Origin: an uncultured archaeon
GTDB lineage: Archaea > Thermoplasmatota > Penumbrarchaeia > JASLWR01
DNA length: 64,000 nt
Direction: 5' to 3'
Assembly: GCA_964430885.1 (NCBI GenBank)
Contig: CAYSHM010000013.1
Coordinates: 18,283 to 82,282, forward strand
Shown: piece by piece, positions 1 through 16,496 of the stretch
How positions within the stretch are numbered: the stretch's first letter is position 1
How the letters are laid out: the number at the start of each line of letters is the position of its first letter
Position numbers and translations under genes: made by a program
Notes under the pieces: generated by a model
What the model was told of the DNA's origin: nothing
The model's database searches: none
What the model saw: the letters and a program-made list of their open reading frames with translations, nothing else

Positions 1-1325
1 ATGTCGAAAATGAAATTATCTCCCGTAGTGCCTGCATTGGGTGAATTATCCCCCGTAAGTGTGGGATCGGCTGTATCAGTTAGGGTGAAGGTCTTGAAAT
101 GATACTGGTCCCAGTAGTCGCTTTGCTGGGATGCCGCAAAATCAGCATGAGTAACACTTACTGTGTAAGCGCCTTTGTACCAATATCCCATGTTGTTGAA
201 TATGAAGTGTGTGCCTTGAAGATTGACATAACCCATGCTGTCGGTTGTGCCGGAGAAGTGGTTTGAACCATTATGGACCATATTCACATTTGCTCCCTGG
301 ATCCCATTCCCCTGAGAATCCTTCACAAATACCTTGTCTGGATAGTTGACAGAAAGATTCCCGCCAGGCATAACGGTCCAGGTACCGTTCAGATTTGCAT
401 TGTAGTTGGTAAGGTTCAGAAGAGTGACATTGATATTATCATTTATGGAATCGGGCGATACATGAACACTGTTCACCAGGGTAGCATTGGTGATGGTGCA
501 GTCCGAGAGTGTGATGTCTCTCTCCGCACCCGTGACATAGACGTTCTGCTCTCCAGTGTTCTCAATAACACAATGGTCGATCACAGGAGTATAACTGATC
601 CCAATGCTTATCCCGATCCCGGTTGTATTGTGTATATATGTGTTCTGAATTATAGGTGAGCCGCCGCCTATCCAAATACCGGTCTTTGATGAATTGAATA
701 TCGTACATCCGGTTACGGTGGTCCCGGAGTTGGTCCTTATGGCACCGCTGTCATCCCCGCCGTCCCCGGTATTGTTGATGGTACAGTTATTGATTATGAA
801 CTCCTCGTCTCCAGTGACATATATGCCCCAGTCGCTGATCTCATTGATGAGACAGTGATTAACCTCCACGTGACTGGCGGCCAGATTGATACCGTCGCCC
901 TTCACTCCTAATGTAGCTTCCATGATGGTGGTGTAATTGATAAAGGCTTTACCGCCGTTCTCAACAATAATTCCCTCGTAACTGCCGTTTGTTACGTTCT
1001 CGGTTATGGTGACATAGCTGTTCCAGGTTCCGTCTATCACCAGTTTACCGCCGTTCTTGACAACTATGCTCCCGGCGCCGTGACTGCTGTCAATCTTCAC
1101 ATTTGTCCCTGCGGATATGTTCAGGGTCCAACCGGCTGTTATATTGAAAACATCATCGACAACTACATTGCCTGACCAGTCCTTGTTAGCCATGTTGATA
1201 TCCCCGGCATAATTGCCGTCTGCCCGGGCAGGAAGTATGGTCCAATCGTTGAATATTACTATGCATGAGAACAGCAGGATCGCTGTTACGCTCAATGATA
1301 CGTTTCTATTAAAACTACTTTTCAT
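1..1325 (-). CDS. Secreted right-handed parallel beta-helix (PbH1/NosD-like) repeat protein; partial, C-terminus beyond window start
   Basis: Minus-strand ATG at 1325 opens a frame that stays open to position 1 with no in-window stop, so it is absent from the ORF track. N-terminus MKSSFNRNVSLSVTAILLFSCIVIF is a signal/TM anchor. Body consists of ~22-residue turns rich in N-x-T sequons and G/N/I/V, typical of beta-helix repeats. Confidence 0.6.
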   Translation of the reverse strand, partial: MKSSFNRNVSLSVTAILLFSCIVIFNDWTILPARADGNYAGDINMANKDWSGNVVVDDVFNITAGWTLNISAGTNVKIDSSHGAGSIVVKNGGKLVIDGTWNSYVTITENVTNGSYEGIIVENGGKAFINYTTIMEATLGVKGDGINLAASHVEVNHCLINEISDWGIYVTGDEEFIINNCTINNTGDGGDDSGAIRTNSGTTVTGCTIFNSSKTGIWIGGGSPIIQNTYIHNTTGIGISIGISYTPVIDHCVIENTGEQNVYVTGAERDITLSDCTITNATLVNSVHVSPDSINDNINVTLLNLTNYNANLNGTWTVMPGGNLSVNYPDKVFVKDSQGNGIQGANVNMVHNGSNHFSGTTDSMGYVNLQGTHFIFNNMGYWYKGAYTVSVTHADFAASQQSDYWDQYHFKTFTLTDTADPTLTGDNSPNAGTTGDNFIFD

Positions 1326-1621
1326 ATTGTTCACCCTTCTACGGTTCAGAGTTTTGTTCATATTCTTTTTTAGTGGAAAAATGTACCTGACTATCAGGTT
1401 TCTATCAGGTAAGAATAGCAACCATTAATTCTTTCCTATTTATAACCTTTTCCTATAACTTATTACTGCGTATCAATCAGGACATATTTTCAATGAGAAC
1501 TGGGAGAGCCATTGCCTGTTTGAAGAATTGAGGCTGCTCCTGTGAGTAAGGTGGGGGAAAAACAATTGAAAATATAAATTTTCACTATTTCAGACAGGAT
1601 AAAATAATCCTTGATGACTAC

Positions 1622-1640
1622 TGTAAAAAATATATTAATA
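1622..1640 (+). promoter_or_regulatory. Candidate archaeal BRE/TATA element upstream of argS
   Basis: Sequence tgtaaaaaatatattaata: purine-rich BRE-like stretch followed by a TATA-like box ending at the first in-frame ATG. A TSS about 25 nt downstream would favour the internal start at 1718. Confidence 0.3.
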
Positions 1641-1717
1641 TGGGAAGTAATACCCTTTCGGTTGAAGGTGCCGTGAAAATGAATGAAGATGGTGTGAAGA
1701 ACGGGTGCAGTTTGTTC

Positions 1718-3511
1718 ATGGACAACCGCCATAAACTGATGAAGAAACTAACATTGTTGTTCGTAGAACTGAACATAGGGACAGCTCCGGTCTTGGAAAC
1801 CCCACCCAAGGGAATGGGGGATCTTGCCCTTCCCTGCTTTTCGCTTGCACGGGAGCTGAAGAAGAGCCCGGCAGTCATCGTTGCAGATCTAACAGAAGCA
1901 ATGAATACCAAGATGGGTGATATGAAGAACATATTTCATGTTGAGTCTAAGGGGCCTTATGTCAACTTCACCTACAGGGACGATTACCTGATGAGAACGG
2001 TGCTGCCGAATGTTCTGAAGAGAGGTAAGGAATACGGTTCCTTTCCAGGTCTGGAGGGCCGAATAATCCTTGAACATACCTCGGCAAATCCCAACGGACC
2101 CTTCCATGTAGGCCGGGCCAGAAATCCCATAATAGGCGACACACTCGCCAGGGTGCTGAGGAAGCGGGGGCATGATGTGGAGGTCCAGTACTGGGTGAAC
2201 GATATGGGCCGTCAGGCTGCCACCCTTGCCTGGGGTAAAAAGAACATAACCCTCGAGGCCAATACGGCCGGTGATTTCGGAATTGACGGGAATGGTTTTT
2301 CTGAAAAACCGGACCATATGCTGGTTCCCTATTACCAGAAAGCCCATTCCCGTATAAGGGAAAATCCAGAATTGGAATCGGAGATCGACAATATCCTGCT
2401 GAGGATAGAGGAAGGCGATAGGGAGATCAAGGATTATGTTCAGCATTATGCCAAAAAGGTACTTGAAGGCATGAAGGGGACCCTGGAAGGATTGAATATC
2501 ATGCACGACAAGTTCGTATGGGAATCCCAGAGTGTAGAGAGCGGTTCAGTAGGGAAGGTGATATCCACCCTCAGTGAAAGCAGCTATGCGTACGCTACCG
2601 AGGGGGCATGGTATCTTGAACTGGAGGATTTCGGTATACAGGGCCGGAGCACCAAGTTCTTTTTCACCAGAGGGGACGGGACGTCACTATACACAACCAG
2701 GGATCTGGCCTATCACCTGGACAAGATGAAAGAGGCCAACAGACTGATAAATGTTCTGGGAGAGGACCACAAGCTCCAGGCAAAACAGCTCAACATCGCC
2801 CTTGAGCTTTTGGATGCTCGGATCCTTCCTGAAAGCGTGTTCTACAGCTTCGTCTCCCTGGAGGACGGCAAGATGTCCACCAGGAAGGGCCAGGTCGTTT
2901 ATCTGGATGATCTTATCAGCGAAGCTGTTCACCGGGCCTATTTGGAGGTTCTAAGAAGAAGGCCGGAACTGGATGAGGACCGGAAGAAAGAGATAGCCGA
3001 AATAGTTGGTCTGGGGTGCATCAGATACAATATCATACGTGTCCAGCCTGACAAGAAGATCACCTTCAGGTGGTCCGACGCCCTGAACTTTGACGGGGAC
3101 AGTTCACCTTTCATGCAGTATGCCCATGCCAGATGCTGCGGGATACTCGACAAGGCGGAGGAGAAGGGGATTGTCACCCCGGAGCCTTCCGAATTGGATA
3201 AAATATTTGACGATCTCCATGACCTTGGCTATCATCCAAGCGAGGTGGAGATTATTAAGAAGATCGCGGAATTCCCGGATGTGGTCAGAGAGGTGTCCGA
3301 AACCTTCAAGCTACACCGGATTCCCGAATATCTGCAGGAGGCTGCTTCCGCATTCAATACCTTCTATCAGGACTGCCCTGTGCTTAAAGATGAGCCCAAT
3401 GGTCAGGATGAACAAAGGAGAAGGTTCCGACTGTGCATAGTTAAAGCTTCCCGCACAGTGATCGCTGAAGGACTGGTCCTCCTTGGTATCAGCGCTCCGA
3501 GGAGCATGTGA
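1718..3511 (+). CDS. argS: Arginine--tRNA ligase (class I)
   Basis: ORF 1640..3511. Conserved PPKGMGDLALPCF N-terminal motif, HIGH-like PNGPFHVGRARN and KMSTRKG (KMSKS). Start placed at ATG 1718 so that ~26 aa precede the PP..GDLA motif as in archaeal ArgRS; 1640 and 1739 are alternatives. Confidence 0.9.
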   Translation: MDNRHKLMKKLTLLFVELNIGTAPVLETPPKGMGDLALPCFSLARELKKSPAVIVADLTEAMNTKMGDMKNIFHVESKGPYVNFTYRDDYLMRTVLPNVLKRGKEYGSFPGLEGRIILEHTSANPNGPFHVGRARNPIIGDTLARVLRKRGHDVEVQYWVNDMGRQAATLAWGKKNITLEANTAGDFGIDGNGFSEKPDHMLVPYYQKAHSRIRENPELESEIDNILLRIEEGDREIKDYVQHYAKKVLEGMKGTLEGLNIMHDKFVWESQSVESGSVGKVISTLSESSYAYATEGAWYLELEDFGIQGRSTKFFFTRGDGTSLYTTRDLAYHLDKMKEANRLINVLGEDHKLQAKQLNIALELLDARILPESVFYSFVSLEDGKMSTRKGQVVYLDDLISEAVHRAYLEVLRRRPELDEDRKKEIAEIVGLGCIRYNIIRVQPDKKITFRWSDALNFDGDSSPFMQYAHARCCGILDKAEEKGIVTPEPSELDKIFDDLHDLGYHPSEVEIIKKIAEFPDVVREVSETFKLHRIPEYLQEAASAFNTFYQDCPVLKDEPNGQDEQRRRFRLCIVKASRTVIAEGLVLLGISAPRSM

Positions 3512-3706
3512 CGGGATTTACATTTGAGTAAATTTCCTAATATGCAGAAAATATACATATACTACATTTCAATATCAATTAAGGATTGTATCCAAAGATA
3601 TGTTCTCAATGAGAGGATATGGGGGTATTATCCGTCTCTATAGGGCATATAATACAAGTCCGGAGGGTATAGGATCAAGAAGAATACCGGTAAGTTTCTG
3701 GTAGCC

Positions 3707-4858
3707 TTGGCTTTTCTTTTCTTCACAGGATTCAGCATGGCCTACTATTTTCAGACAGGCAGCATATCGGCTATTCTTCCGTATCTCATCACTATTATGG
3801 GTGCTTCCTTCCTTATTCTTCTCACAGTCCATTACACGACCAGTCAGCAGGATAAGCTGATGAACACAGTTGCTTCCATCCTCTATGACAAGGCAATTGC
3901 CCTGGACAAGGAGAGAGAGAAGAACCAGGATGAATCCGGGGATATGATAGCACAGGGTGATTCCACAGCCAAGGGCAAGGGAATCATACCCATTGACAAA
4001 CCCAGCGTAGATTTTGCCAATGTAGGGGGACTGGAACGTGTGAAGGAGGAGATCAGAAAGGCAATAATCTACCCTTTCGATCATCCTGAGCTATACACAC
4101 TTTACGGAAAGCGGATAGGCGAGGGTATACTTCTTTACGGCCCTCCCGGCTGCGGAAAGACCTTTATCAGCAGAGCAACTGCCGGGGAAGCAAAGGCTTC
4201 ATTTATCAATATCAAGCTCAGCGATATCCTCAGCAAATGGGTAGGGCAGAGCGAAAGAAAGATCTCCGAGGCCTTCGAGACCGCCGCCAAGAATAAACCG
4301 GCTATTCTATTTTTCGACGAGGTGGACGCTCTGGGGTCCAAGAGAGGGGACATGTCCCAGGACCATACCAACCGGCTGGTGAATTCCCTTCTGATGGAGA
4401 TGGACGGTTTTGCGGGACCCAAAGAGCAGGTTCTGATACTAGCAGCCACCAATGAACCCTGGAATGTGGATTCCGCCCTCAAACGGCCGGGCAGGTTCAG
4501 CAAACTGCTTTTCATCCCCCCGCCTGATTTCGAGGCCCGATACCAGATCCTCAAGATACTTGCCGAGAACAAACCGGTATCACCCCTAGTTGACCTGAAG
4601 ATGATCGCCAAGAAGACCGCTGGATACTCAAGTGCCGATCTGGAGCAGATAGTAGAGGAGGCTGCGGACATACCCCTCAAGGAGGCAATATCTGGTAAGA
4701 AGTCAAGAGCAATAAACGAGAGCGATTTTTTCAGGGTCCTCAAGAAGCGCTCTTCTTCCATCCTGCCCTGGTTCAAACACGCAAAGGAGCAGCTGATAAT
4801 CAGAGACTGCAGGGATGAGTTCCAGGAACTTTGGAGATTTGTTAAAAAAATAAAATAG
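3707..4858 (+). CDS. Membrane-anchored AAA+ ATPase
   Basis: Two N-terminal hydrophobic helices, then Walker A GPPGCGKT, Walker B ILFFDEVD and second region of homology. C-terminus ends FVKKIK, so no HbYX motif. Confidence 0.8.
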   Translation: MAFLFFTGFSMAYYFQTGSISAILPYLITIMGASFLILLTVHYTTSQQDKLMNTVASILYDKAIALDKEREKNQDESGDMIAQGDSTAKGKGIIPIDKPSVDFANVGGLERVKEEIRKAIIYPFDHPELYTLYGKRIGEGILLYGPPGCGKTFISRATAGEAKASFINIKLSDILSKWVGQSERKISEAFETAAKNKPAILFFDEVDALGSKRGDMSQDHTNRLVNSLLMEMDGFAGPKEQVLILAATNEPWNVDSALKRPGRFSKLLFIPPPDFEARYQILKILAENKPVSPLVDLKMIAKKTAGYSSADLEQIVEEAADIPLKEAISGKKSRAINESDFFRVLKKRSSSILPWFKHAKEQLIIRDCRDEFQELWRFVKKIK

Positions 4859-5010
4859 CATTAAATCGAGCAAGGTGGAAAAATATTTAGTTCAGGTGTG
4901 ATATAGGGAAGGCAAAAGTCCACGGATTCAGATCAATAATATTTCAATAATATCAGTAATATCAATAGGACTAATGATCCGGAATTAATACATTTCAGGG
5001 GAGACACAAG

Positions 5011-5742
5011 ATGCAACCGAGCAATATGGCATATGACAGGGCGATAACCGTTTTCTCGCCGGACGGCAGACTGTTCCAGGTGGAATACGCTAGGGAAGCC
5101 GTAAAGAGAGGAACGACTACTGTTGGATTGAAGTACGACAATGGTGTGCTTCTGATGATAGAGAAGAGGATAACAAGCAGGCTTATCGAGGCGGCCTCCA
5201 TCGAGAAGATATTCAGGATAGATGATCATGTAGGGTGCGCTACCTCGGGTCTGGTTGCCGATGCCAGGGTCCTTGTTGAGAGGGCCCAGCTCGAGGGACA
5301 GATACACAGGATAACCTACGGGGAGAAGACCACTGTGGATTCCCTTGTAAAGAAAATCTGCGATTTCAAACAGAACTACACCCAGTTCGGAGGCGTCAGA
5401 CCCTTCGGGACTGCTCTTCTCATTGCAGGCTTCGATGAACAGGGACTGCATCTATACGAGACAGATCCCAGCGGAGCGGTGATCGCCTACAAGGCTGCTA
5501 GCATAGGGGCGGGACGTGATACGGTTGTCAGGGTTTTCGAGGAGAAATACAAGGACAACATGAGCAAGAAGGATGCAATAGAGCTGGGTCTTGAGGCCCT
5601 CATGGAGTCCTCGGAGAAATCCGTGGAGACCGATAGGATCGAGATAGGTCTTATCACCAAGGACCAGAAGTTCAGTTTACTGTCCCCTGAAGAGGTTGCC
5701 AAGTATGCGAAGCCCTTCATGAAGAAGATTTCCAAGGAATGA
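5011..5742 (+). CDS. psmA: 20S proteasome alpha subunit
   Basis: N-terminal [27 protein letters not shown] is the canonical alpha-subunit signature. GGGGAG RBS-like element 8 nt upstream. Confidence 0.95.
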
Positions 5743-7525: not shown

Positions 7526-10324
7526 GTGATAGAGTTGGAGATCAAGTACAATGCCCAGGAAATTGAGATCAAATGGCAGAAGAAATGGAGAGAAGAAGGC
7601 ATATTCAATGTAGAGGCCAGCGACGACAAGGAAAAATTCTACTGTTTGGAGATGTATCCCTACCCCTCGGCCACTCTCCATATGGGCCATTTGCGTAATT
7701 ATTCAATAGGGGACTGCCTGGCCCGTTTCCAGCGGATGCATGGTAAGAACGTTCTCTATCCTATGGGTTACGATGCCTTCGGTATGCCTGCGGAGAATGC
7801 CGCCATCCTCCATGGAGCCCAGCCCAAGAAATGGACCTGGGATAATATCAAGAATATAGGCCAGCAGCAGAGAAGAATGGGTCTGAGCTACGACTGGGAC
7901 CGCCAGATACAGAGCTGCGACGAGGATTATTACCGATGGAACCAGTGGATCTTCCTGAAACTGCTTGAAAAGGGACTCGTAAAACGAAAGAAATCCTTTG
8001 TGAACTGGTGCAGTGAGTGTACCACCGTACTTGCCAACGAGCAGGTTATCAACAACAGGTGCTGGAGGTGCTCAACCGAGATACAGCCTCTGGAGAAGGA
8101 GCAGTGGTTCTTCGGTATCCGGAAATACGCAGATGAGCTTTTGGAATCCCTGGATGATCTGGACTGGCCTGACAGGGTCAAATCAATGCAGAGTAACTGG
8201 ATAGGCCGAAGTGAAGGGACCATAATCAAGTTCGAGATCAAGGATACCGGAAAGGAGATTCCAATATTCACCACCAGACCCGATACACTTTTCGGTGTCA
8301 CATTCATGGTATTCGCACCTGAGCATCCCTGGGTAAAGGAATGGGTCAAGGGTACCGAGTATCAGGATGAGTTCGAGGCATTTCTGGCGGAAGTACTCAA
8401 GGAGGACAAGTTCAAAAGGATGGATGCCAGCAGGGACAAGAAGGGCATGTTCACAGGCAAGTACGCCGTTAATCCCATAAACGGACGTGAGGTTCCGGTA
8501 TATGTAGGTAATTTTGTGATCTACGGGTATGGTGCAGGTGCCGTCATGGCAGTACCTTCACATGACCAGAGGGATTTCGAGTTCGCAAAGGAGCATGATA
8601 TCCCTATTATTGTTGTGATCAATCCGCCAGGATATTCCATCAATGCCGAGAAGATGGCAAGGGCGTACGAGGGTAACGGTGAGCTGGTGAACTCTGGAGA
8701 GTTCACGGGTTTCAGGAGCGAGGAGGCCCAGGATTACATATCTGATAAACTAGCAGAGATGAATAAGGGCGGTAAGACCGTTGACTATCGTCTTCGGGAC
8801 TGGCTCATATCCCGCCAGAGGTACTGGGGGACACCCATACCCATGGTCTACTGCGATAAATGCGGCGTTGTGCCGGTGCCCTACGAGGAGCTCCCTGTAA
8901 AGCTTCCGGATGATGTGATATTCACAGGTGACTGCAATCCCCTGGAGACCTCGGAGAGCTTTGTCAATACCGGCTGTCCCCAGTGCGGGGAGCCCGCCAG
9001 GAGGGAGACTGATACCATGGACACCTTCGTTGACAGCTCCTGGTATTTCCTGAAATACTGCTCACCCCGGACCGAGGATTTTCCCTTCAACCGTGATGAT
9101 GTCAACTACTGGATGGCGGTTGACCAGTACATTGGGGGCATAGAGCACGCTACTGGACATTTGATCTATGCACGGTTCTTCACCAAGGCCATGAGGGATA
9201 TGGGTCTTCTGGATTTCAATGAGCCCTTCGGCAGGCTCATGACCCAGGGAATGGTTAATAAGGAAGCGGCATACTGTCAGGAGTGCGATGTGTTCTTCCA
9301 TCCTGACAAGGTGAAGGACAGTGATGACTGTCCCGAATGCGGAAACCACCTGGGACAGAGAATTACAAAGATGTCCAAGAGTCTGGGGAATACTGTTAGT
9401 CCCGATAATGTCATCAAGGAGTTCGGGGCAGACTCTGCCCGCTTCTTCATATTGTCAGGGTCCAATCCCCGAAGGGACCTGGCCTGGTCTGATGAGGGTA
9501 TAGAGACAACCTACCGGTTCATGGATAAGACCTACAGGCTTCTCATGGAACCCCCCAAGGATGTAAAGAATGGAGGTCTGGACGCCTGGGATGAATTGAT
9601 GGAATACCGACTGAATTCCACAATCCGCAATGTCACCCATGAACTTGCAGAGCTCATGATACGTGACGCCATAAATTCAATAATTAGGTTCATCAATCAG
9701 CTTTCTGCTTATAAGAAGGGAATTGTAGAGAAGGAACTCTACGATAGGTCAGTGGACTCTCTGATGCTTATGCTGGCCCCCATCGTGCCTCATATGGCCG
9801 AGGAGATTAATCAGCACAGGGGAAGCGCCGAATTTGCCTCCCTCCGCATGTGGCCAGGGTATGATGAAGAGATGCTGGGCGAGGTTACAGAGTTCAAATG
9901 GGATATGCTTGACGCTGTTATCGAAGACATAAAGGATATTCTCGTTATCATCGGTAAGGAGGAGGTGGAAGGGATAAAGCTCTTTACGGCTGATAGCTGG
10001 AAATACAGGTTCGTTGATATATTCAGGGAGGAGTTCCGGAAAACAAAGAATTTCGGGGAGATAATGTCCAGGATGATGAGGGAGGAGAAACTTAGAAAGC
10101 ATGGGAAGACCATTAACAGGATGATAGCCCAGTTCCTGAAAAAACCCAGCCTGGCCCCGGATATTCTCCTGGATTCAGAGTCAGAATTTGAGTTCTTTGA
10201 TTTGGTAAAGATTATTCTTGAGAAGAGGTTCAACTGCCCAGTTGCAGTCGAGTTTGAGGGAACCACCCAGGAGAAGAAGGCCGGTAAGGCTCTCCCGGGC
10301 AAACCTGCCATAATTATCCAGTAG
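7526..10324 (+). CDS. leuS: Leucine--tRNA ligase (archaeal type)
   Basis: GTG start. [14 protein letters not shown] (HIGH), KMSKSLGN (KMSKS), editing CP1 domain and zinc-binding Cys pairs. 932 aa. Confidence 0.95.
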
Positions 10325-11409: not shown

Positions 11410-13578
11410 TTGGTGATAATTATTAATTCAAACGGAAAATCAAAAGGAGGGTCATCCCGGATCCTGCCTATAGTTGTCTTGATCAGTCTGCTTCTAAGTC
11501 TGAGTCTGGCTCTGGCTTCGGAGGTTTTAACAGATAGGTCCGGTAATATGTGCCAGGGCTGCCATGGCAACAGATACAAGGAGTACTGCAACCTCCTGCC
11601 CCATGACGCCGAGAGCGATCTGCCTGCCAGCGCTGATGTGGACCTGACCATAACCATGAAGATGGCTGTAGAGGTGATAAGCACAGGCCAGTCAGGTCCG
11701 AGCAATTATTTCTTGGTGGATGTCCTACGTGTAACCCTGGGCAGTGTTAACGGGAAGGTGAACATTCCAGTTCCCCAGCAGGAGGCTAATAATTTATACC
11801 CTGGTGACCGGTCAGTATTCTCTTGGGATATCACGCCTACTGAAGCTGGGGATGAACAGCTGACTTTTTCCCTGTATGCTCACAATCCCCATAAATCATC
11901 AACCGCATCGGAGCTTTATTACCACGACCTCACCATTATCGGTCAGATGAGTGAACCGAGCTCTCCGCGTTCTTTGGAGCTCAGTGTGGGAAGGATATTT
12001 GCTCATCTGACCTGGGAAACTCCCCTGGATGACGGAGGTGATGATCTAATTAGATTCAATATCTACAGGGGGAACACACCTGGAAACGCAGTTCAATATG
12101 ACACGGTTTCTCCCTTTACACTAGACTATAATGACACCGCTGTTTCACTGGGTGAGAGCTACTATTACCAGGTCAGCGCGGAGAACTCCCAGGGTGAGTC
12201 ACCGTTATCTTCCGAAGTGTCCGGCGAACTTGTTTTCGCACCTTTAAGTCCACGGAACCTTCAGGGTGTGGGCGGGGACAACTATGTTCTGCTGTCATGG
12301 GACGAACCACTGGACGACGGAGGTGCGCATATTACAAGTTATAACCTTTACAGGGGAACTACCGAGAACGGTCTCTCACTGCTGGATTCCTTTGGTCCCT
12401 CAGAGCATTCTATCAACGACACATCTGTGACCAATAGCAATACCTATTATTATCACATTACCTGCGAGAACTCTCAGGGAGAATCCGATCCTGGTAGCAT
12501 CATATCCATTACCCCCGAGAAGGATGTTTCGGTGCCCACCCCGCCCAGGGACCTTACCATAGAATGCGGAGAGGATTTTTGCCTTCTGAAATGGGATGAA
12601 CCCGCTTATGACGGAGGAGCCCCGCTTATATTTTACAAGCTTTACAGGGGGCCGGCGGATGGTGAACGGGAATTACTGATAAATATCGATGAAGTATATC
12701 TGGAATTTAATGATACCTCTGCTTACAGCGGAGTAGAGTATTCCTATCATGTGACCGTCGTGAATTCCGCAGGGGAATCACCACCGAGCACAATGGTAAC
12801 CGGCAAACCCGATGTTGAAGTGAGTCTGCCTTCCCCTCCTGAGAACCTTACCTATACTGAGAGTGATGGGTATGTTCATATATATTGGGAACCTCCGGCC
12901 AATTTCGGCGGGGGCCGTTTGATCAGTTTCAATCTCTACAGAGGGGAGGAACTGGCGTCTATCAGATTGTATCGGAATATTCATCCTGACCTTAATGATT
13001 TCAATGATACCAACGTGACCAACGGCAAGGTGTTCAGGTACTATGTCACAGCACTGAACGAGAAATTCGAGAGCGGATCTACCAATATAATCTATACCCT
13101 GCCGGAAGAGGAGGATATTTCTGATGATCCCAAGGACGATCCTAAACCGCAGTTTCCTCCCTCTTTCCTCCTGACCATACCTGATGAAGAAACAATCGAG
13201 ACAGGTCTGAACAACATTGTGCATTTTATGGTGAGGGGCAATGTAACGGCCAATATCACATGGTTTGTCGAGGGTGACGTGTATTCCAAGGGTTCGGAGA
13301 TACTGGAATATCCTACCCTTTTACCAGGCACCTATGATATAGAGGTGGAGCTGGAGAGATACGGACTTACCGCTTCACACTCGTGGAAAATCAAGGTCCT
13401 GTACCGGACACCCGGGAATGATGACAGTAGCAATATTGGCAATGGCGGTTCCCAAGGAGATCCCGAGAGCGGTGGAAGTACTGATTACGGTCTCTTTGCC
13501 GACATGCTCTACATTTTGGGCGGTATAGGATTAATCGTCTTAACAGTGATACTTGTGATCTATTACAGGAGGCAGTAA
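11410..13578 (+). CDS. Membrane-anchored extracellular protein: N-terminal CXXCH haem-c motif followed by four fibronectin-III-like repeats
   Basis: Signal peptide then CQGCH at 11551..11565. Four ~95-aa repeats each with W-x-x-P-x-D/YDGG-x-x-I-x-x-Y-x-L/I-YRG and a terminal Y-Y-x-V-x-A-x-N-x-x-G-E-S (FN3-like). C-terminal TM LYILGGIGLIVLTVILVIYY. Stop TAA abuts the next gene ATG at 13579. Confidence 0.7.
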   Translation: MVIIINSNGKSKGGSSRILPIVVLISLLLSLSLALASEVLTDRSGNMCQGCHGNRYKEYCNLLPHDAESDLPASADVDLTITMKMAVEVISTGQSGPSNYFLVDVLRVTLGSVNGKVNIPVPQQEANNLYPGDRSVFSWDITPTEAGDEQLTFSLYAHNPHKSSTASELYYHDLTIIGQMSEPSSPRSLELSVGRIFAHLTWETPLDDGGDDLIRFNIYRGNTPGNAVQYDTVSPFTLDYNDTAVSLGESYYYQVSAENSQGESPLSSEVSGELVFAPLSPRNLQGVGGDNYVLLSWDEPLDDGGAHITSYNLYRGTTENGLSLLDSFGPSEHSINDTSVTNSNTYYYHITCENSQGESDPGSIISITPEKDVSVPTPPRDLTIECGEDFCLLKWDEPAYDGGAPLIFYKLYRGPADGERELLINIDEVYLEFNDTSAYSGVEYSYHVTVVNSAGESPPSTMVTGKPDVEVSLPSPPENLTYTESDGYVHIYWEPPANFGGGRLISFNLYRGEELASIRLYRNIHPDLNDFNDTNVTNGKVFRYYVTALNEKFESGSTNIIYTLPEEEDISDDPKDDPKPQFPPSFLLTIPDEETIETGLNNIVHFMVRGNVTANITWFVEGDVYSKGSEILEYPTLLPGTYDIEVELERYGLTASHSWKIKVLYRTPGNDDSSNIGNGGSQGDPESGGSTDYGLFADMLYILGGIGLIVLTVILVIYYRRQ

Positions 13579-14907
13579 ATGAAGCGCATACTGGTCCTGG
13601 CCTCCCTCCTGCTTCTCCTTGCTTCCACACTAGCTGCCGGCTATTCCGAGACCCGAAGCAACTGTTATTCATGCCACAGCTCATCTTCGGCTTCAGGCGG
13701 CTACAAATATGTTCTCCCTGAACTTCAGCTCGATGTGCCGGGATTTGTAGAGCCGGATACGGATTTCGTATTGAATATGAAACTACTTTTCTCCGATTAC
13801 GAAATAGAAGAAGCTGAGTTCACCCTGAGTGCCGACGAGGACATGCTGGTCTTTACCGAAGATGTTGTGAAACGTTCAGGTCTATCCAATGGTGATGAGG
13901 TTTCTATAGGGGGTAAGACCAAGGGTCAAGGCGTTGTGGAGATAAAGGTGATCGCAAGGGTAGATGTCTATTATGACCATAATGTCGGCAGTTATGATGA
14001 CAGGGGCACGGAGATACTTGAGAAGACCGCTGTTCTGACAGTCGGAAGTACATCGCTCATTCCCTCTCATTGGTCTATACTCCTTAAAAAGGATCCAGTC
14101 CCGGTTCAATTGAAGGCCAAGGAAGATATTACCGATATTGAAATAACGGCACCTTACGGAGTTCATGTACTACCCCAGACAATTGCCAAGCTGGATTCTG
14201 GAAAGACCGCAGTCATTACCCTGGAAGCCGACAGCAGTTCTAGCATTAATGAAAATATTATTATCACCTGGAATGAAGGAGGCAACCAAAGGGCTTTATC
14301 CATCAATGTGGTTCACAGGGCTTCATCTGGTTCAGGAAGCGACGGCCTTCACTTGATGGGCAGAATAACTGGAATAGCCTCAATATTCCTTCTTTTGGCG
14401 TCACTGATATTCGGGGGGCTCTGGAATTCACGAAATGCACTGAAAAAAATGATGTCAGCCAAAACAAGGATAAAGATTCACTGCGGAATCTCATGGTTCC
14501 TCTTTGCCCTTGCATTATATCACGGGATAATCCTTCTTGTCGGCCCCTATAATTCGCAGATCTGGGAGAGGCCGGTGATAATTGGTGATATTGCAGCCTT
14601 TGGTATGCTGATCGCAGCCCTGTCAGGAGGTTTGATGAAATGGATGATCAGGAAGTTTGGTAGAAAGGCGTGGCGGATCATACATCTGTATTCAACCCTA
14701 GGAGCTCTTGTTCTGGGAACCCTTCACGGCATTCAGATGGGGACTGATACGGATTTCATAAGGGAAACACCCCCCCTTCGGATATTTATCATGGCTGTGG
14801 TTATAATTGGAAGTATTATCTCACTTATAATGCTGCACAGAAGTAATAAGACCAAAAAAGCAGTAACCCCAAGGGGTGATCATAGGGTGAAGTTCAGGTC
14901 AAATTGA
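13579..14907 (+). CDS. Membrane protein with N-terminal CXXCH haem-c motif and C-terminal di-haem cytochrome-b-like 5-TM domain
   Basis: Signal peptide, CYSCH at 13663..13677 in a context paralogous to the upstream gene. C-terminal TMs carry two His pairs with 14-residue spacing (KIH..13..YH and IIH..13..LH) on alternate helices, the classic bis-haem-b arrangement. Confidence 0.65.
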   Translation: MKRILVLASLLLLLASTLAAGYSETRSNCYSCHSSSSASGGYKYVLPELQLDVPGFVEPDTDFVLNMKLLFSDYEIEEAEFTLSADEDMLVFTEDVVKRSGLSNGDEVSIGGKTKGQGVVEIKVIARVDVYYDHNVGSYDDRGTEILEKTAVLTVGSTSLIPSHWSILLKKDPVPVQLKAKEDITDIEITAPYGVHVLPQTIAKLDSGKTAVITLEADSSSSINENIIITWNEGGNQRALSINVVHRASSGSGSDGLHLMGRITGIASIFLLLASLIFGGLWNSRNALKKMMSAKTRIKIHCGISWFLFALALYHGIILLVGPYNSQIWERPVIIGDIAAFGMLIAALSGGLMKWMIRKFGRKAWRIIHLYSTLGALVLGTLHGIQMGTDTDFIRETPPLRIFIMAVVIIGSIISLIMLHRSNKTKKAVTPRGDHRVKFRSN

Positions 14908-14985: not shown

Positions 14986-15432
14986 ATGGCACATTCACTG
15001 GATTCGGCAATGATTTACATACACCCGCCCTTGGCCATTATCGGCTATGTTCTTATCCTTCTGAGCACAGTTTTCATTGGCCGGGAACTTTTCCTAAAAA
15101 AGCAATTCAAAGCTACAAAGAAGATCCTCTATACATCCTGGATCATTAACCTTCTGGGTGTAGTTACCGGTGCAATATGGGCACAGTGGGCCTGGGGTTC
15201 ATACTGGTCCTGGGATCCCAAGGAGACGGTGTCTCTCATTATGTTCGTGTTTGTGGTAATAGGACTCCTTTTTTACGAAAACCCCATCTTCAATATCAAA
15301 TGCGACGGAAGCTGCCCGGTACAGAACCATCGGAAACATATCTCGTTTGGACTCCATATAGCTGCAATCATAACGATATTTATCAACATATGGATAACCC
15401 TTGGGAATTTCGGTCTGCATTCATACGGCTGA
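14986..15432 (+). CDS. Minimal WWD-domain haem-handling protein (CcsA/CcmC family-like)
   Basis: 148 aa, 4 TMs. Tryptophan-rich loop [16 protein letters not shown] matches the WGxxWxWDPKE signature of CcsA/ResC/CcmC. Flanking His residues (IHPPLA; [11 protein letters not shown]). Confidence 0.65.
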
Positions 15433-15470: not shown

Positions 15471-16496
15471 ATGTTTAGACGATTTCGAGATATCTGGCAC
15501 CCGGAGAACTATCACGGAACGAAAAATAAAAAAAAATTCTTTGAAGGCTGGTACTTCAAGCTTGTTTCCGCAGATCTAAAGAAAAAATTCGCATTCATAC
15601 CGGGTATATCCCTGTCCCCTGAAGACCCACACTGCTTCATCCAGGTTCTGGAAGGTGGCAGCAGCCAGACCAATTATGTGCGCTATTCCATTGATGAATT
15701 TCAGATAGGCAAAAAATTCGATTTGACCCTGGGTAAGAGCCGTTTCAACATCGACGGCCTGGAGCTGGATATCCTGGATGAGTTCATAACGATCAAGGGT
15801 GTAATTAACTTCAAGGATCAATATAAATGGCCCGGGACCTTCTTTTCACCCGGGGCCATGGGACCCTACCAGTTTGCGCCTTTCATGCAGTGTAACCATG
15901 GCATACTGAGCATGGACCATGTAATAACGGGTAAATTGGCGGTGAATGGGGAGAGCGTGGATTTAACCGGAGGCCGGGGTTACCTCGAAAAGGACTGGGG
16001 CCGGTCATTTCCACGGGCGTGGATATGGTCCCAATGCAATGATTGGGAGTCGCCGGCCCCCACCCCCGATCCCACACCTACGTCGGTGAGTATATCTGTT
16101 GCTACAGTGCCTTGGATGTGGAGCTATTTCACAGGTTTCATTATCGTTGTGATGGCCGGTGGGAAATTCTACAATTTCTCCACCTATGCAGGAGGGAGGA
16201 TAAAACGACTGAGGGTCAGAGATTCCTTGGTCGAGCTTAAGATCGTAAGTAAAGATATCGTTCTGGAAGCAATTCTAATAAAGAGTCGCGGAGGAGAACT
16301 AGCTAGTCCGGTAAAGGGCATGATGGAGGGACGAATAACCGAGAGCCTTGATTCCAGGTGCAGGATCGCCCTTTACAGGCTGAGCAGGAATGGATCGGGG
16401 GAACGGCAGATTATGTTCAGGGGCAAGGGTGACCCGGCAGCCCTGGAAGTTGTGGGAGATATGGATGAGCTGAGGTCTGGATTAGGGTTGAAATAA
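15471..16496 (+). CDS. Tocopherol-cyclase-like protein
   Basis: N-terminal HPENYHGTKNKKKFFEGWYFKL matches the PHSGYH..FFEGWYFK opening of the tocopherol cyclase (VTE1/SXD1) family. Contains a Pro/Thr linker SPAPTPDPTPT. Confidence 0.5.
   Translation: MFRRFRDIWHPENYHGTKNKKKFFEGWYFKLVSADLKKKFAFIPGISLSPEDPHCFIQVLEGGSSQTNYVRYSIDEFQIGKKFDLTLGKSRFNIDGLELDILDEFITIKGVINFKDQYKWPGTFFSPGAMGPYQFAPFMQCNHGILSMDHVITGKLAVNGESVDLTGGRGYLEKDWGRSFPRAWIWSQCNDWESPAPTPDPTPTSVSISVATVPWMWSYFTGFIIVVMAGGKFYNFSTYAGGRIKRLRVRDSLVELKIVSKDIVLEAILIKSRGGELASPVKGMMEGRITESLDSRCRIALYRLSRNGSGERQIMFRGKGDPAALEVVGDMDELRSGLGLK

Follow-up and report, generated by a model that had tools for sequence, protein, structure and literature searches.

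A predicted four-histidine membrane cytochrome family with a haem-c β-sandwich head, encoded in uncultured archaea

Introduction

Proteins built on the ferric reductase domain (FRD), among them NOX, FRE, STEAP and MsrQ, are standard single-protein devices for trans-membrane electron transfer. The domain is defined by four histidines on trans-membrane (TM) helices TM3 and TM5, which in NOX2 lie at positions 101/115 and 209/222 (Zhang et al. 2013, PMC3591440), the first histidine of each pair binding the inner haem; YedZ and STEAP carry an arginine in place of the first canonical histidine and bind one haem (PMC3591440). As accessory electron-transfer modules that survey lists Fer2, Rieske, DOMON and a peroxidase-like domain; its main text nowhere uses the term 'cytochrome c', and the superfamily is treated there as essentially bacterial and eukaryotic, with only four archaeal members of the FRE family, ascribed to horizontal transfer (PMC3591440). 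c-Type cytochromes have likewise been reported as nearly absent from Thermoplasmata-related archaea, those of the Thermoplasmatales being found in two single-cell genomes only (Kletzin et al. 2015, PMC4429474). Here we analyse a stretch of 64,000 nucleotides (hereafter the window) on contig CAYSHM010000013.1 of an uncultured archaeon of the Thermoplasmatota, in which one open reading frame (ORF) encodes a 442-residue protein, here called the FRD-cytochrome, that joins an exported CXXCH motif to a four-histidine membrane bundle of the FRD type.

A first-pass annotation of the window had read this protein as a haem-c head fused to a di-haem-b membrane domain that might conduct electrons across the membrane or, alternatively, serve as a CcsB-like partner of the WWD protein encoded downstream. 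All computational tests that we ran support the former proposal, and on balance we lean towards the FRD-cytochrome being a three-haem trans-membrane electron conduit.

Results

A conserved four-histidine membrane domain

The last ~190 residues of the FRD-cytochrome form five helices, TM-a to TM-e, in an AlphaFold model of the TM domain alone (Table 1). Translation of positions 13579-14907 (+) places the peptide KIHCGISWFLFALALYH of TM-b at residues 299-315, with His301 at nucleotides 14479-14481 and His315 at 14521-14523, and the peptide IIHLYSTLGALVLGTLH of TM-d at residues 367-383, with His369 at 14683-14685 and His383 at 14725-14727. The two histidines on each helix are spaced exactly i,i+14 and one other helix separates the two histidine helices, just as the first-pass annotation had described; its start for the domain, position 14330, misses the codon boundary at 14329 by one base.

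This pattern recurs throughout a large family. When 1.84 billion cluster representatives were searched exhaustively with a profile, 212 clusters were recovered at E ≤ 1e-3 and 99 at E ≤ 1e-10, and we accordingly state the family size as at least 212 clusters at 50% identity; a word-indexed homologue search returned 7 proteins only. Most members have 400-550 residues and, towards the N-terminus, a signal peptide and one CXXCH. The only name for the family in any source is 'hypothetical protein', and our literature searches yielded no description of a cytochrome-c-fused FRD or of an FRD-cytochrome family. The four histidines, the CXXCH motif and the Y-D-H motif of His134 all recur in six close homologues of 39-44% identity. 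Among 142 aligned TM domains, each representing a cluster at 50% identity or less, histidine occupies positions 301, 315, 369 and 383 in 139, 140, 139 and 139 cases, respectively, and is accompanied by Trp365 (140), Gly350 (137), Gly336 (136), Ser305 (130) and Arg297 (124). To judge from this alignment, the four-histidine pattern is far beyond chance and clearly under selection, and a fortuitous arrangement was rejected on the strength of its retention in 139-140 of the 142 diverse relatives.

The conserved unit is smaller than the window protein suggests. In 124 of 140 relatives the chain stops fewer than 20 residues past a GTDxxFIR motif that follows the fourth helix, and because so many end just there we take four helices as the conserved unit. 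The 5-TM domain proposed in the first-pass annotation therefore stands for this clade, while the core of the family has four TM helices. In the window protein only 17 residues follow TM-e; the closest homologues (P0002-P0006 and P0008) carry cytoplasmic tails of 100-245 residues that are of low complexity and extremely rich in aspartate, glutamate, tyrosine and arginine.

Profile comparisons assign this unit to a described superfamily. The Pfam family Ferric_reduct (PF01794) matches residues 264-379 of the window protein over profile positions 1-120 of 121 (E 3e-5 to 1e-4), and it matches 36 of 44 diverse relatives scanned individually at E ≤ 0.01, with a best E of 1.7e-10. The only other recurrent Pfam matches, both weak, are to DUF4405 (15/44 relatives) and Ni_hydr_CYTB (PF01292; 10/44), two families of membrane cytochromes b that presumably share one Pfam clan with Ferric_reduct; the window protein itself matches neither profile in Pfam. 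On these profile matches we place the family, taken as a whole, in the FRD superfamily, the window member by itself being sub-threshold.

Structure prediction and remote alignment point the same way. The TM-only model, computed on a 44-sequence alignment (pLDDT 93.9, pTM 0.84), predicts a helical bundle as in the NOX5 TM domain: its best fold match in the PDB, by Foldseek, is the TM domain of Cylindrospermum NOX5 (5o0t; probability 0.96, TM-score 0.57, 178 columns), and human NOX5 and Dcytb are also among the matches. A profile search of PDB sequences with the TM domain gave STEAP4 as the sole relevant match, in an alignment that sets His315 and His383 on STEAP4 His304 and His397, which we take to be its haem ligands. 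With hhalign, His369 and His383 fall on His151 and His164 of Escherichia coli MsrQ, a weak alignment that is nonetheless in register, and no match was obtained to the b561-type YodB of E. coli. No ResB/CcsB family appears among the Pfam or NCBIfam matches of the window protein at E up to 1, and the same scan of the protein revealed no flavin adenine dinucleotide (FAD) or nicotinamide adenine dinucleotide domain.

The distribution of charges supplies the topology. Loops a-b and c-d and the C-terminal tail are rich in lysine and arginine, loops b-c and d-e are acidic, and this fits an outside N-terminus with one histidine pair at each membrane face. From the loop charges and the exported N-terminus, the first histidine of each pair, His301 or His369, is placed at the end of its helix that faces the cytoplasm and the second, His315 or His383, at the end that faces outwards. 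The arrangement is that of the FRD, whose TM2 to TM6 correspond to TM-a to TM-e here, and since all four canonical histidines are kept the domain is, by its sequence, of the four-histidine, two-haem type rather than the YedZ/STEAP type. Taken together, the coverage of Ferric_reduct, the NOX5-like fold, the register with STEAP4 and MsrQ and the conservation of the histidines back the bis-haem-b assignment of the FRD/MsrQ kind that the first-pass annotation had put forward. Neither of the outcomes that the annotation had named as refuting it was found: the histidines are retained in homologues, and the fold is predicted as an FRD-like bundle of helices.

Three other identities were considered for the protein and rejected. 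A NOX/FRE enzyme would not fit a chain with no dehydrogenase domain, with so short a segment after TM-e and with most relatives ending after the fourth helix; a single-haem protein of the YedZ/STEAP kind is at odds with the histidine, not arginine, at position 301 in 139 of 142 relatives; and a CcsB/ResB homologue is contradicted by the missing ResB match and by a WWD partner that has no conserved TM histidine (see below).

A mono-haem head and its upstream counterpart

The protein begins with the signal peptide MKRILVLASLLLLLASTLAAG, which, if uncleaved, would replace TM1 of the canonical six-helix FRD. Five residues beyond it lies the CYSCH motif, the single CXXCH of the protein, and the only two genuine CXXCH ORFs of the whole window are the FRD gene and its upstream neighbour. 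Among the 49 relatives with an N-terminal domain that can be aligned along most of its extent, all have CXXCH and 45 have His134, a residue that is invariant among close homologues. No methionine is conserved in the ectodomain, either among the close homologues or in the alignment of 49 relatives, and for this reason the likeliest state of the c-haem would be bis-histidine, with His134 as the probable second ligand.

AlphaFold predicts the ectodomain as a generic tandem β-sandwich, two domains over ~220 residues. Profile searches of Pfam, NCBIfam and PDB sequences returned no relatives for it, and Foldseek with the full-length model returned generic Ig-like and β-sandwich matches only. The stretches of low confidence in that model are the CXXCH segment and the His134 loop, as would be expected if both closed round a haem that the predictor cannot see. 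An exported CXXCH motif and available maturation genes (the adjacent WWD gene, and CcmABC(D)E near a homologue) together mark the protein, at the level of sequence, as a putative c-type cytochrome.

The stop codon of the upstream gene, which encodes a 722-residue surface protein, abuts the start of the FRD gene. Over its N-terminal 200 residues the surface protein shares homology with the N-terminal domain of P0012, a remote member of the FRD-cytochrome family (34% identity, E 4e-31), and its N-terminal module is homologous also to mono-haem surface proteins at four other loci (L012, L016, L021 and L022). When the N-terminal halves of the two CXXCH proteins of the window are compared directly by BLASTP, no similarity emerges, so that the kinship of their heads is transitive only, through P0012 and those four surface proteins; with this qualification, we judge that the two window cytochromes carry versions of one haem-binding module. 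The N-terminal module of the 722-residue protein looks like an undescribed β-sandwich c-type cytochrome domain. Both this haem-c β-sandwich and the mini-WWD protein described below are unannotated and worth adding to the family databases.

A proposed electron conduit

Building on the computed motif, its conservation, the FRD affiliation, the topology and the gene linkage, we infer haem occupancy, a ligand role for His134, the donor, the acceptor and the direction of electron flow as follows. TM-a to TM-d would form an FRD-type bundle with two b-haems, each ligated by one histidine of TM-b and one of TM-d: the inner haem by His301 and His369, where these helices face the cytoplasm, and the outer haem by His315 and His383, where they face outwards. 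A c-haem would be held covalently by Cys29 and Cys32, with His33 and probably His134 as axial ligands, on the tandem β-sandwich just above the outer b-haem. Electrons would enter at the inner face and, because most relatives have no cytoplasmic domain, their donor would most likely be the membrane quinol or a small soluble flavoprotein. They would then pass from the inner to the outer b-haem, on to the c-haem and from there to an extracytoplasmic acceptor. At the window locus the next carrier is probably the mono-haem surface protein, rich in fn3 repeats, that is encoded directly upstream; elsewhere, as at locus L012, an outward-facing molybdoenzyme reductase could act as acceptor. The c-haem itself would most likely be attached to the unusual CXXCH module by the mini-WWD protein. 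Should the conduit work in this way, it would give uncultured marine Thermoplasmatota a concrete route to respire extracytoplasmic or extracellular acceptors.

Several results weigh against this proposal. The PF01794 score of the window protein, 22.6-24.6 bits, lies under the gathering score of 28; the Foldseek match of the TM model has a weak E-value (0.5), the STEAP4 match an E-value of only 1.2 and the hhalign alignment to MsrQ a probability of just 17%; and the placement of domains in the full-length model is of low confidence (pTM 0.41). Furthermore, the donor is a guess, as the protein has neither a dehydrogenase domain nor a demonstrable quinone site, and no terminal reductase gene adjoins the FRD gene in the window.

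Gene neighbourhoods and alternative roles

We compared the neighbourhoods of 15 distinct loci, the window included; scans of sequence collections had given loci in 4 genomes and 5 metagenome contigs. Wherever the neighbours of a locus are informative they show it to be archaeal, the marker genes being those for the proteasome, SBDS and Rrp4 on the window contig, Nop and fibrillarin at L015, RFC at L019 and NurA/HerA at L007. Several family members come from marine metagenomes, and the Thermoplasmatota metagenome-assembled genome ETNP2_MAG_1 holds two copies.

Two companions are often encoded beside the FRD-cytochrome: a further surface cytochrome that has the same type of module, and a miniature haem-handling protein of the WWD kind. 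The former, a mono-haem surface protein of fn3/Ig type, is encoded directly upstream at 5 of the 15 loci, and a gene for a WWD protein of 122-159 residues lies directly downstream at 7 (the window, L007, L009, L014, L018, L026 and L028). The latter linkage extends to relatives at 26-30% identity, with stop and start codons that sometimes overlap or nearly abut.

At L012, in ETNP2_MAG_1, the pair of surface cytochrome and FRD-cytochrome directly follows an operon of the type-II dimethyl sulfoxide (DMSO) reductase family (1-5491), which encodes alpha, FeS beta and haem-b gamma components and a NarJ-like chaperone; some 2.6 kb downstream, on the other strand, lies the gene for an 881-residue protein with Ig, DOMON and cytochrome b561 domains (11962-14607). 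L019 has flavin reductase (Flavin_Reduct) and nitroreductase genes directly upstream of the FRD gene, and L014 has a complex-I-like operon and a flavodoxin gene upstream.

Other loci carry genes for copper handling. The gene for a CopA-type HMA P-type ATPase lies downstream of the FRD gene at L003, L005 and L011, which stand for the locus sets L003/L004/L013, L005/L006 and L011/L024, and at L003 and L011 the ATPase is followed by a ResA-like thioredoxin fused to a CcdA-like TM domain. L003 (12172-20640) also holds an HMA chaperone gene and, ~7 kb away, CcmABC(D)E genes, whose CcmE ends in the archaeal-type CPSKY; no CcmF is visible in that stretch. L015 (5264-9641), from a high-GC archaeon, has two tandem FRD-cytochrome paralogues and then a 414-residue multicopper oxidase, which the NirK model of NCBIfam (59 bits, cut-off 296) does not resolve as NirK. 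At L011 (7959-9638) the FRD-cytochrome gene is split into 7959-8426 and 8460-9638, and a frameshift, a pseudogene or an assembly error is possible.

These copper neighbours could be taken to mean that the FRD-cytochrome is a cell-surface metalloreductase of the FRE/STEAP kind, whose outer c-haem reduces Cu(II) or Fe(III) for uptake, or which serves copper homeostasis together with the multicopper oxidase and the copper ATPase; FRE and STEAP are metalloreductases within the FRD superfamily (PMC3591440). We consider this role rather unlikely. No copper genes adjoin the FRD gene in the window or at L007, L009, L012, L014, L018 and L019, and L003, which also holds the ResA/CcdA-like thiol reductase and CcmABC(D)E, may be a cytochrome-maturation and metal island; furthermore, an intermediate c-haem and a second surface cytochrome exceed the known needs of a metalloreductase.

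The proposed architecture is also symmetric as to direction, and electrons might run inward from an extracellular donor, for instance Fe(II), reduced humics or a partner cell, through the surface cytochrome, the c-haem and the b-haems to a quinone or a cytoplasmic acceptor, an oxidising role that would fit the multicopper oxidase neighbour and the S-layer-spanning mono-haem partners. This seems to us improbable. A bis-histidine c-haem is usually of low potential and suits donation over uptake from weak donors, and the reductase operon adjacent at L012 needs electrons supplied outside. Across its superfamily, moreover, the FRD is reductive and exports electrons (Zhang et al., PMC3591440), as it would in the outward conduit that we propose.

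The downstream mini-WWD protein

Directly downstream of the FRD gene lies the gene for a 148-residue WWD protein that scores 62.8 bits against Cytochrom_C_asm (PF01578; gathering score 29.9). It falls far under the cut-offs of the CcsA, CcmC and CcmF equivalog models, belongs to none of the three and is far smaller than any of them. Its own family, here termed mini-WWD, comprises more than 333 clusters of proteins of 122-148 residues; the family is unnamed, and one member is named as Candidatus Bathyarchaeota. His13 (YIHPP), the WWD motif and His145 (GLHSY) are invariant in 120-121 of 121 sequences, which gives the protein the trait of the CcmC/CcmF/CcsA superfamily, a WWD motif flanked by two external histidines, and His3 is mostly conserved. 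No TM histidine is conserved in the family: the sole one, His124, is variable, with alanine the commonest residue at its position, and there is consequently no TM-His2 with which a CcsB-like TM-His1 could pair.

The distribution of the mini-WWD gene is equally telling. At L021 and L022 it directly follows genes for mono-haem β-sandwich surface proteins that have no FRD domain, and at 8 of the 15 FRD-family loci the WWD neighbour is missing; on both counts we link the protein to the CXXCH module and not to the TM histidines. By analogy, it is probably a dedicated c-haem attachment factor for that module, and we do not think that it forms part of the conduit. A dedicated haem lyase beside its special substrate is an established pattern, exemplified by NrfI/CcsA1 of Wolinella. 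No Ccm genes were found in the 64-kb window.

The same linkage admits a role of the TM histidines in cytochrome c biogenesis, through CcsB-like delivery of haem to the WWD protein or through b-haems that supply reductant to the WWD site, as is proposed for the b-haem of CcmF. The directly downstream WWD gene at seven loci, distant relatives included, would agree with such a role, as would a mini-WWD protein that has both periplasmic histidines and the WWD motif without a TM haem site, and the failure to find CcmF in the Ccm cluster of L003. We nevertheless hold this very unlikely: the four histidines fit the bis-haem motif of the FRD and would all be used within the bundle, leaving none for a partner; the matches at E up to 1 contain no ResB or CcsB; the variable His124 offers no equivalent of TM-His2; the mini-WWD gene follows surface cytochromes that have no FRD and is missing near the FRD gene at more than half of the loci; and a haem lyase placed beside its substrate explains the linkage more simply. 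The CcsB-like partnership entertained in the first-pass annotation is thereby disfavoured.

The strongest form of this alternative makes the FRD-cytochrome and the mini-WWD protein a minimal archaeal cytochrome c synthase, with the FRD bundle supplying in trans the function of the TM b-haem site that CcmF and CcsBA possess and the mini-WWD protein lacks. The bundle would reduce haem at the WWD site, or hand haem over, and the module would mature its own c-haem and those of the associated β-sandwich surface cytochromes. To this, too, we attach very little credence; if true, it would constitute a new variant of cytochrome c biogenesis in lineages long thought to be nearly without c-type cytochromes.

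Two further segments follow the mini-WWD gene in the window. Directly downstream of it, at 15471-16496 (+), lies a gene for a tocopherol-cyclase-like protein (PF14249, 66.7 bits), present in the window locus only among the loci compared, whose product might act on a quinone or chromanol lipid. The segment 16597-18992 (+) encodes a 602-residue protein with three rubredoxin-like CxxC...CPxC modules fused to a Glu_synthase-type flavin mononucleotide domain and, after it, a rubrerythrin whose C-terminal domain is rubredoxin-like.

Table 1. Features of the FRD-cytochrome gene and its immediate neighbours in the window (nucleotide positions of the window; haem and ligand assignments are predictions)
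Feature	Position	Strand	Basis
Upstream 722-residue surface protein: signal peptide, one CXXCH (nt 11551), haem β-sandwich module, four fn3 repeats, C-terminal TM anchor	11410..13578	+	
FRD-cytochrome, whole ORF, 442 residues: signal peptide, CXXCH, two β-sandwich domains, 5-helix FRD-type TM domain	13579..14907	+	
Signal peptide or signal anchor, residues 1-23	13579..13647	+	sequence; helix 2-26 in model
CYSCH haem-c attachment motif, residues 29-33: Cys29, Cys32, His33	13663..13677	+	49/49 relatives
Tandem β-sandwich ectodomain, extracytoplasmic, residues 48-155 and 160-246	13720..14316	+	AlphaFold model
His134 (Y-D-H motif), candidate distal axial ligand of the c-haem	13978..13980	+	conservation
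TM-a, residues 256-278, out to in, equivalent to FRD TM2	14344..14412	+	
TM-b, residues 294-321, in to out, equivalent to FRD TM3; His301 (putative inner haem), His315 (putative outer haem)	14458..14541	+	
TM-c, residues 331-351, out to in, equivalent to FRD TM4; conserved Gly336, Gly350	14569..14631	+	
TM-d, residues 362-387, in to out, equivalent to FRD TM5; Trp365, His369 (putative inner haem), His383 (putative outer haem)	14662..14739	+	
TM-e, residues 398-425, and short K/R-rich cytoplasmic tail; clade-specific, missing in most relatives	14770..14907	+	
Mini-WWD haem-handling protein (Cytochrom_C_asm), 148 residues, 4 TM	14986..15432	+	Pfam

Discussion

The closest relatives of the membrane domain are the FRD proteins themselves. 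As in NOX, FRE/FRO and the bacterial four-histidine forms, two histidines on the equivalent of TM3 and two on that of TM5 would hold an inner and an outer b-haem, and the two histidine helices have the same orientation in the membrane. The i,i+14 spacing on TM3 is that of His101/His115 in NOX2 (PMC3591440), whereas on TM5 the spacing is 14 here and 13 in NOX2 (His209/His222). Unlike NOX and FRE, the family carries no FAD/NADPH dehydrogenase domain, and unlike the canonical FRD it either lacks TM1 or has a signal peptide in its place, most relatives having four helices. The extracytoplasmic c-haem domain sets it apart from the FRD forms of the 2013 survey (PMC3591440), and its informative loci are archaeal, in contrast to the FRE family of that survey with its four archaeal members.

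With MsrQ (YedZ) and STEAP1-4 the family shares the lack of a fused NOX-type dehydrogenase and, as proposed here, the delivery of electrons to an extracytoplasmic partner or substrate, and the histidines of the outer haem align residue for residue. It differs from YedZ and STEAP, with their arginine at the first position and their one haem, in that all four histidines are kept; and neither MsrQ nor STEAP has a covalent haem or a β-sandwich ectodomain, whereas the FRD-cytochrome has both, the haem being predicted.

In layout, the family has counterparts in the DOMON-cytochrome b561 fusions of the CYBDOM type, in which a β-sandwich haem domain on the outside is likewise coupled to a four-histidine, di-haem TM conduit; the Ig-DOMON-b561 protein encoded near the L012 family member is itself of this type, with Ig repeats, DOMON and Cytochrom_B561. 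The resemblance does not extend to the parts: the TM domain is of the b561 family in the one and an FRD in the other, the DOMON haem is a non-covalent b-haem as opposed to the CXXCH-bound haem c, and the ectodomains are dissimilar in sequence.

In logic, the proposed conduit is also comparable to quinol dehydrogenases such as CbcL of Geobacter, NapC/NirT/CymA and NarC of the archaeal pNar system, in which electrons from the membrane or its quinone pool reach c-haems outside the cytoplasm and, through these, outward-facing reductases or extracellular acceptors. CbcL combines a HydC/FdnI-type b domain with nine c-haems, and NapC and CymA have no b-haems. To our knowledge, none of these systems has an FRD bundle or a β-sandwich mono-haem head.

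A TM histidine site beside a WWD-domain protein recalls CcsB/ResB-CcsA of System II and CcmF of System I, in the latter of which the haem bound by the WWD domain probably receives electrons from a TM b-haem. Unlike CcsB and CcmF, the FRD-cytochrome shows no ResB or CcmF similarity and has a bis-haem motif within one bundle in place of a single shared TM-histidine site, and unlike the CcsB-CcsA pair its WWD partner has no conserved TM histidine. Set against all these systems, the FRD-cytochrome is not a new principle; it is an undescribed and widespread family in which a four-histidine FRD bundle is combined with a new mono-haem c β-sandwich head.

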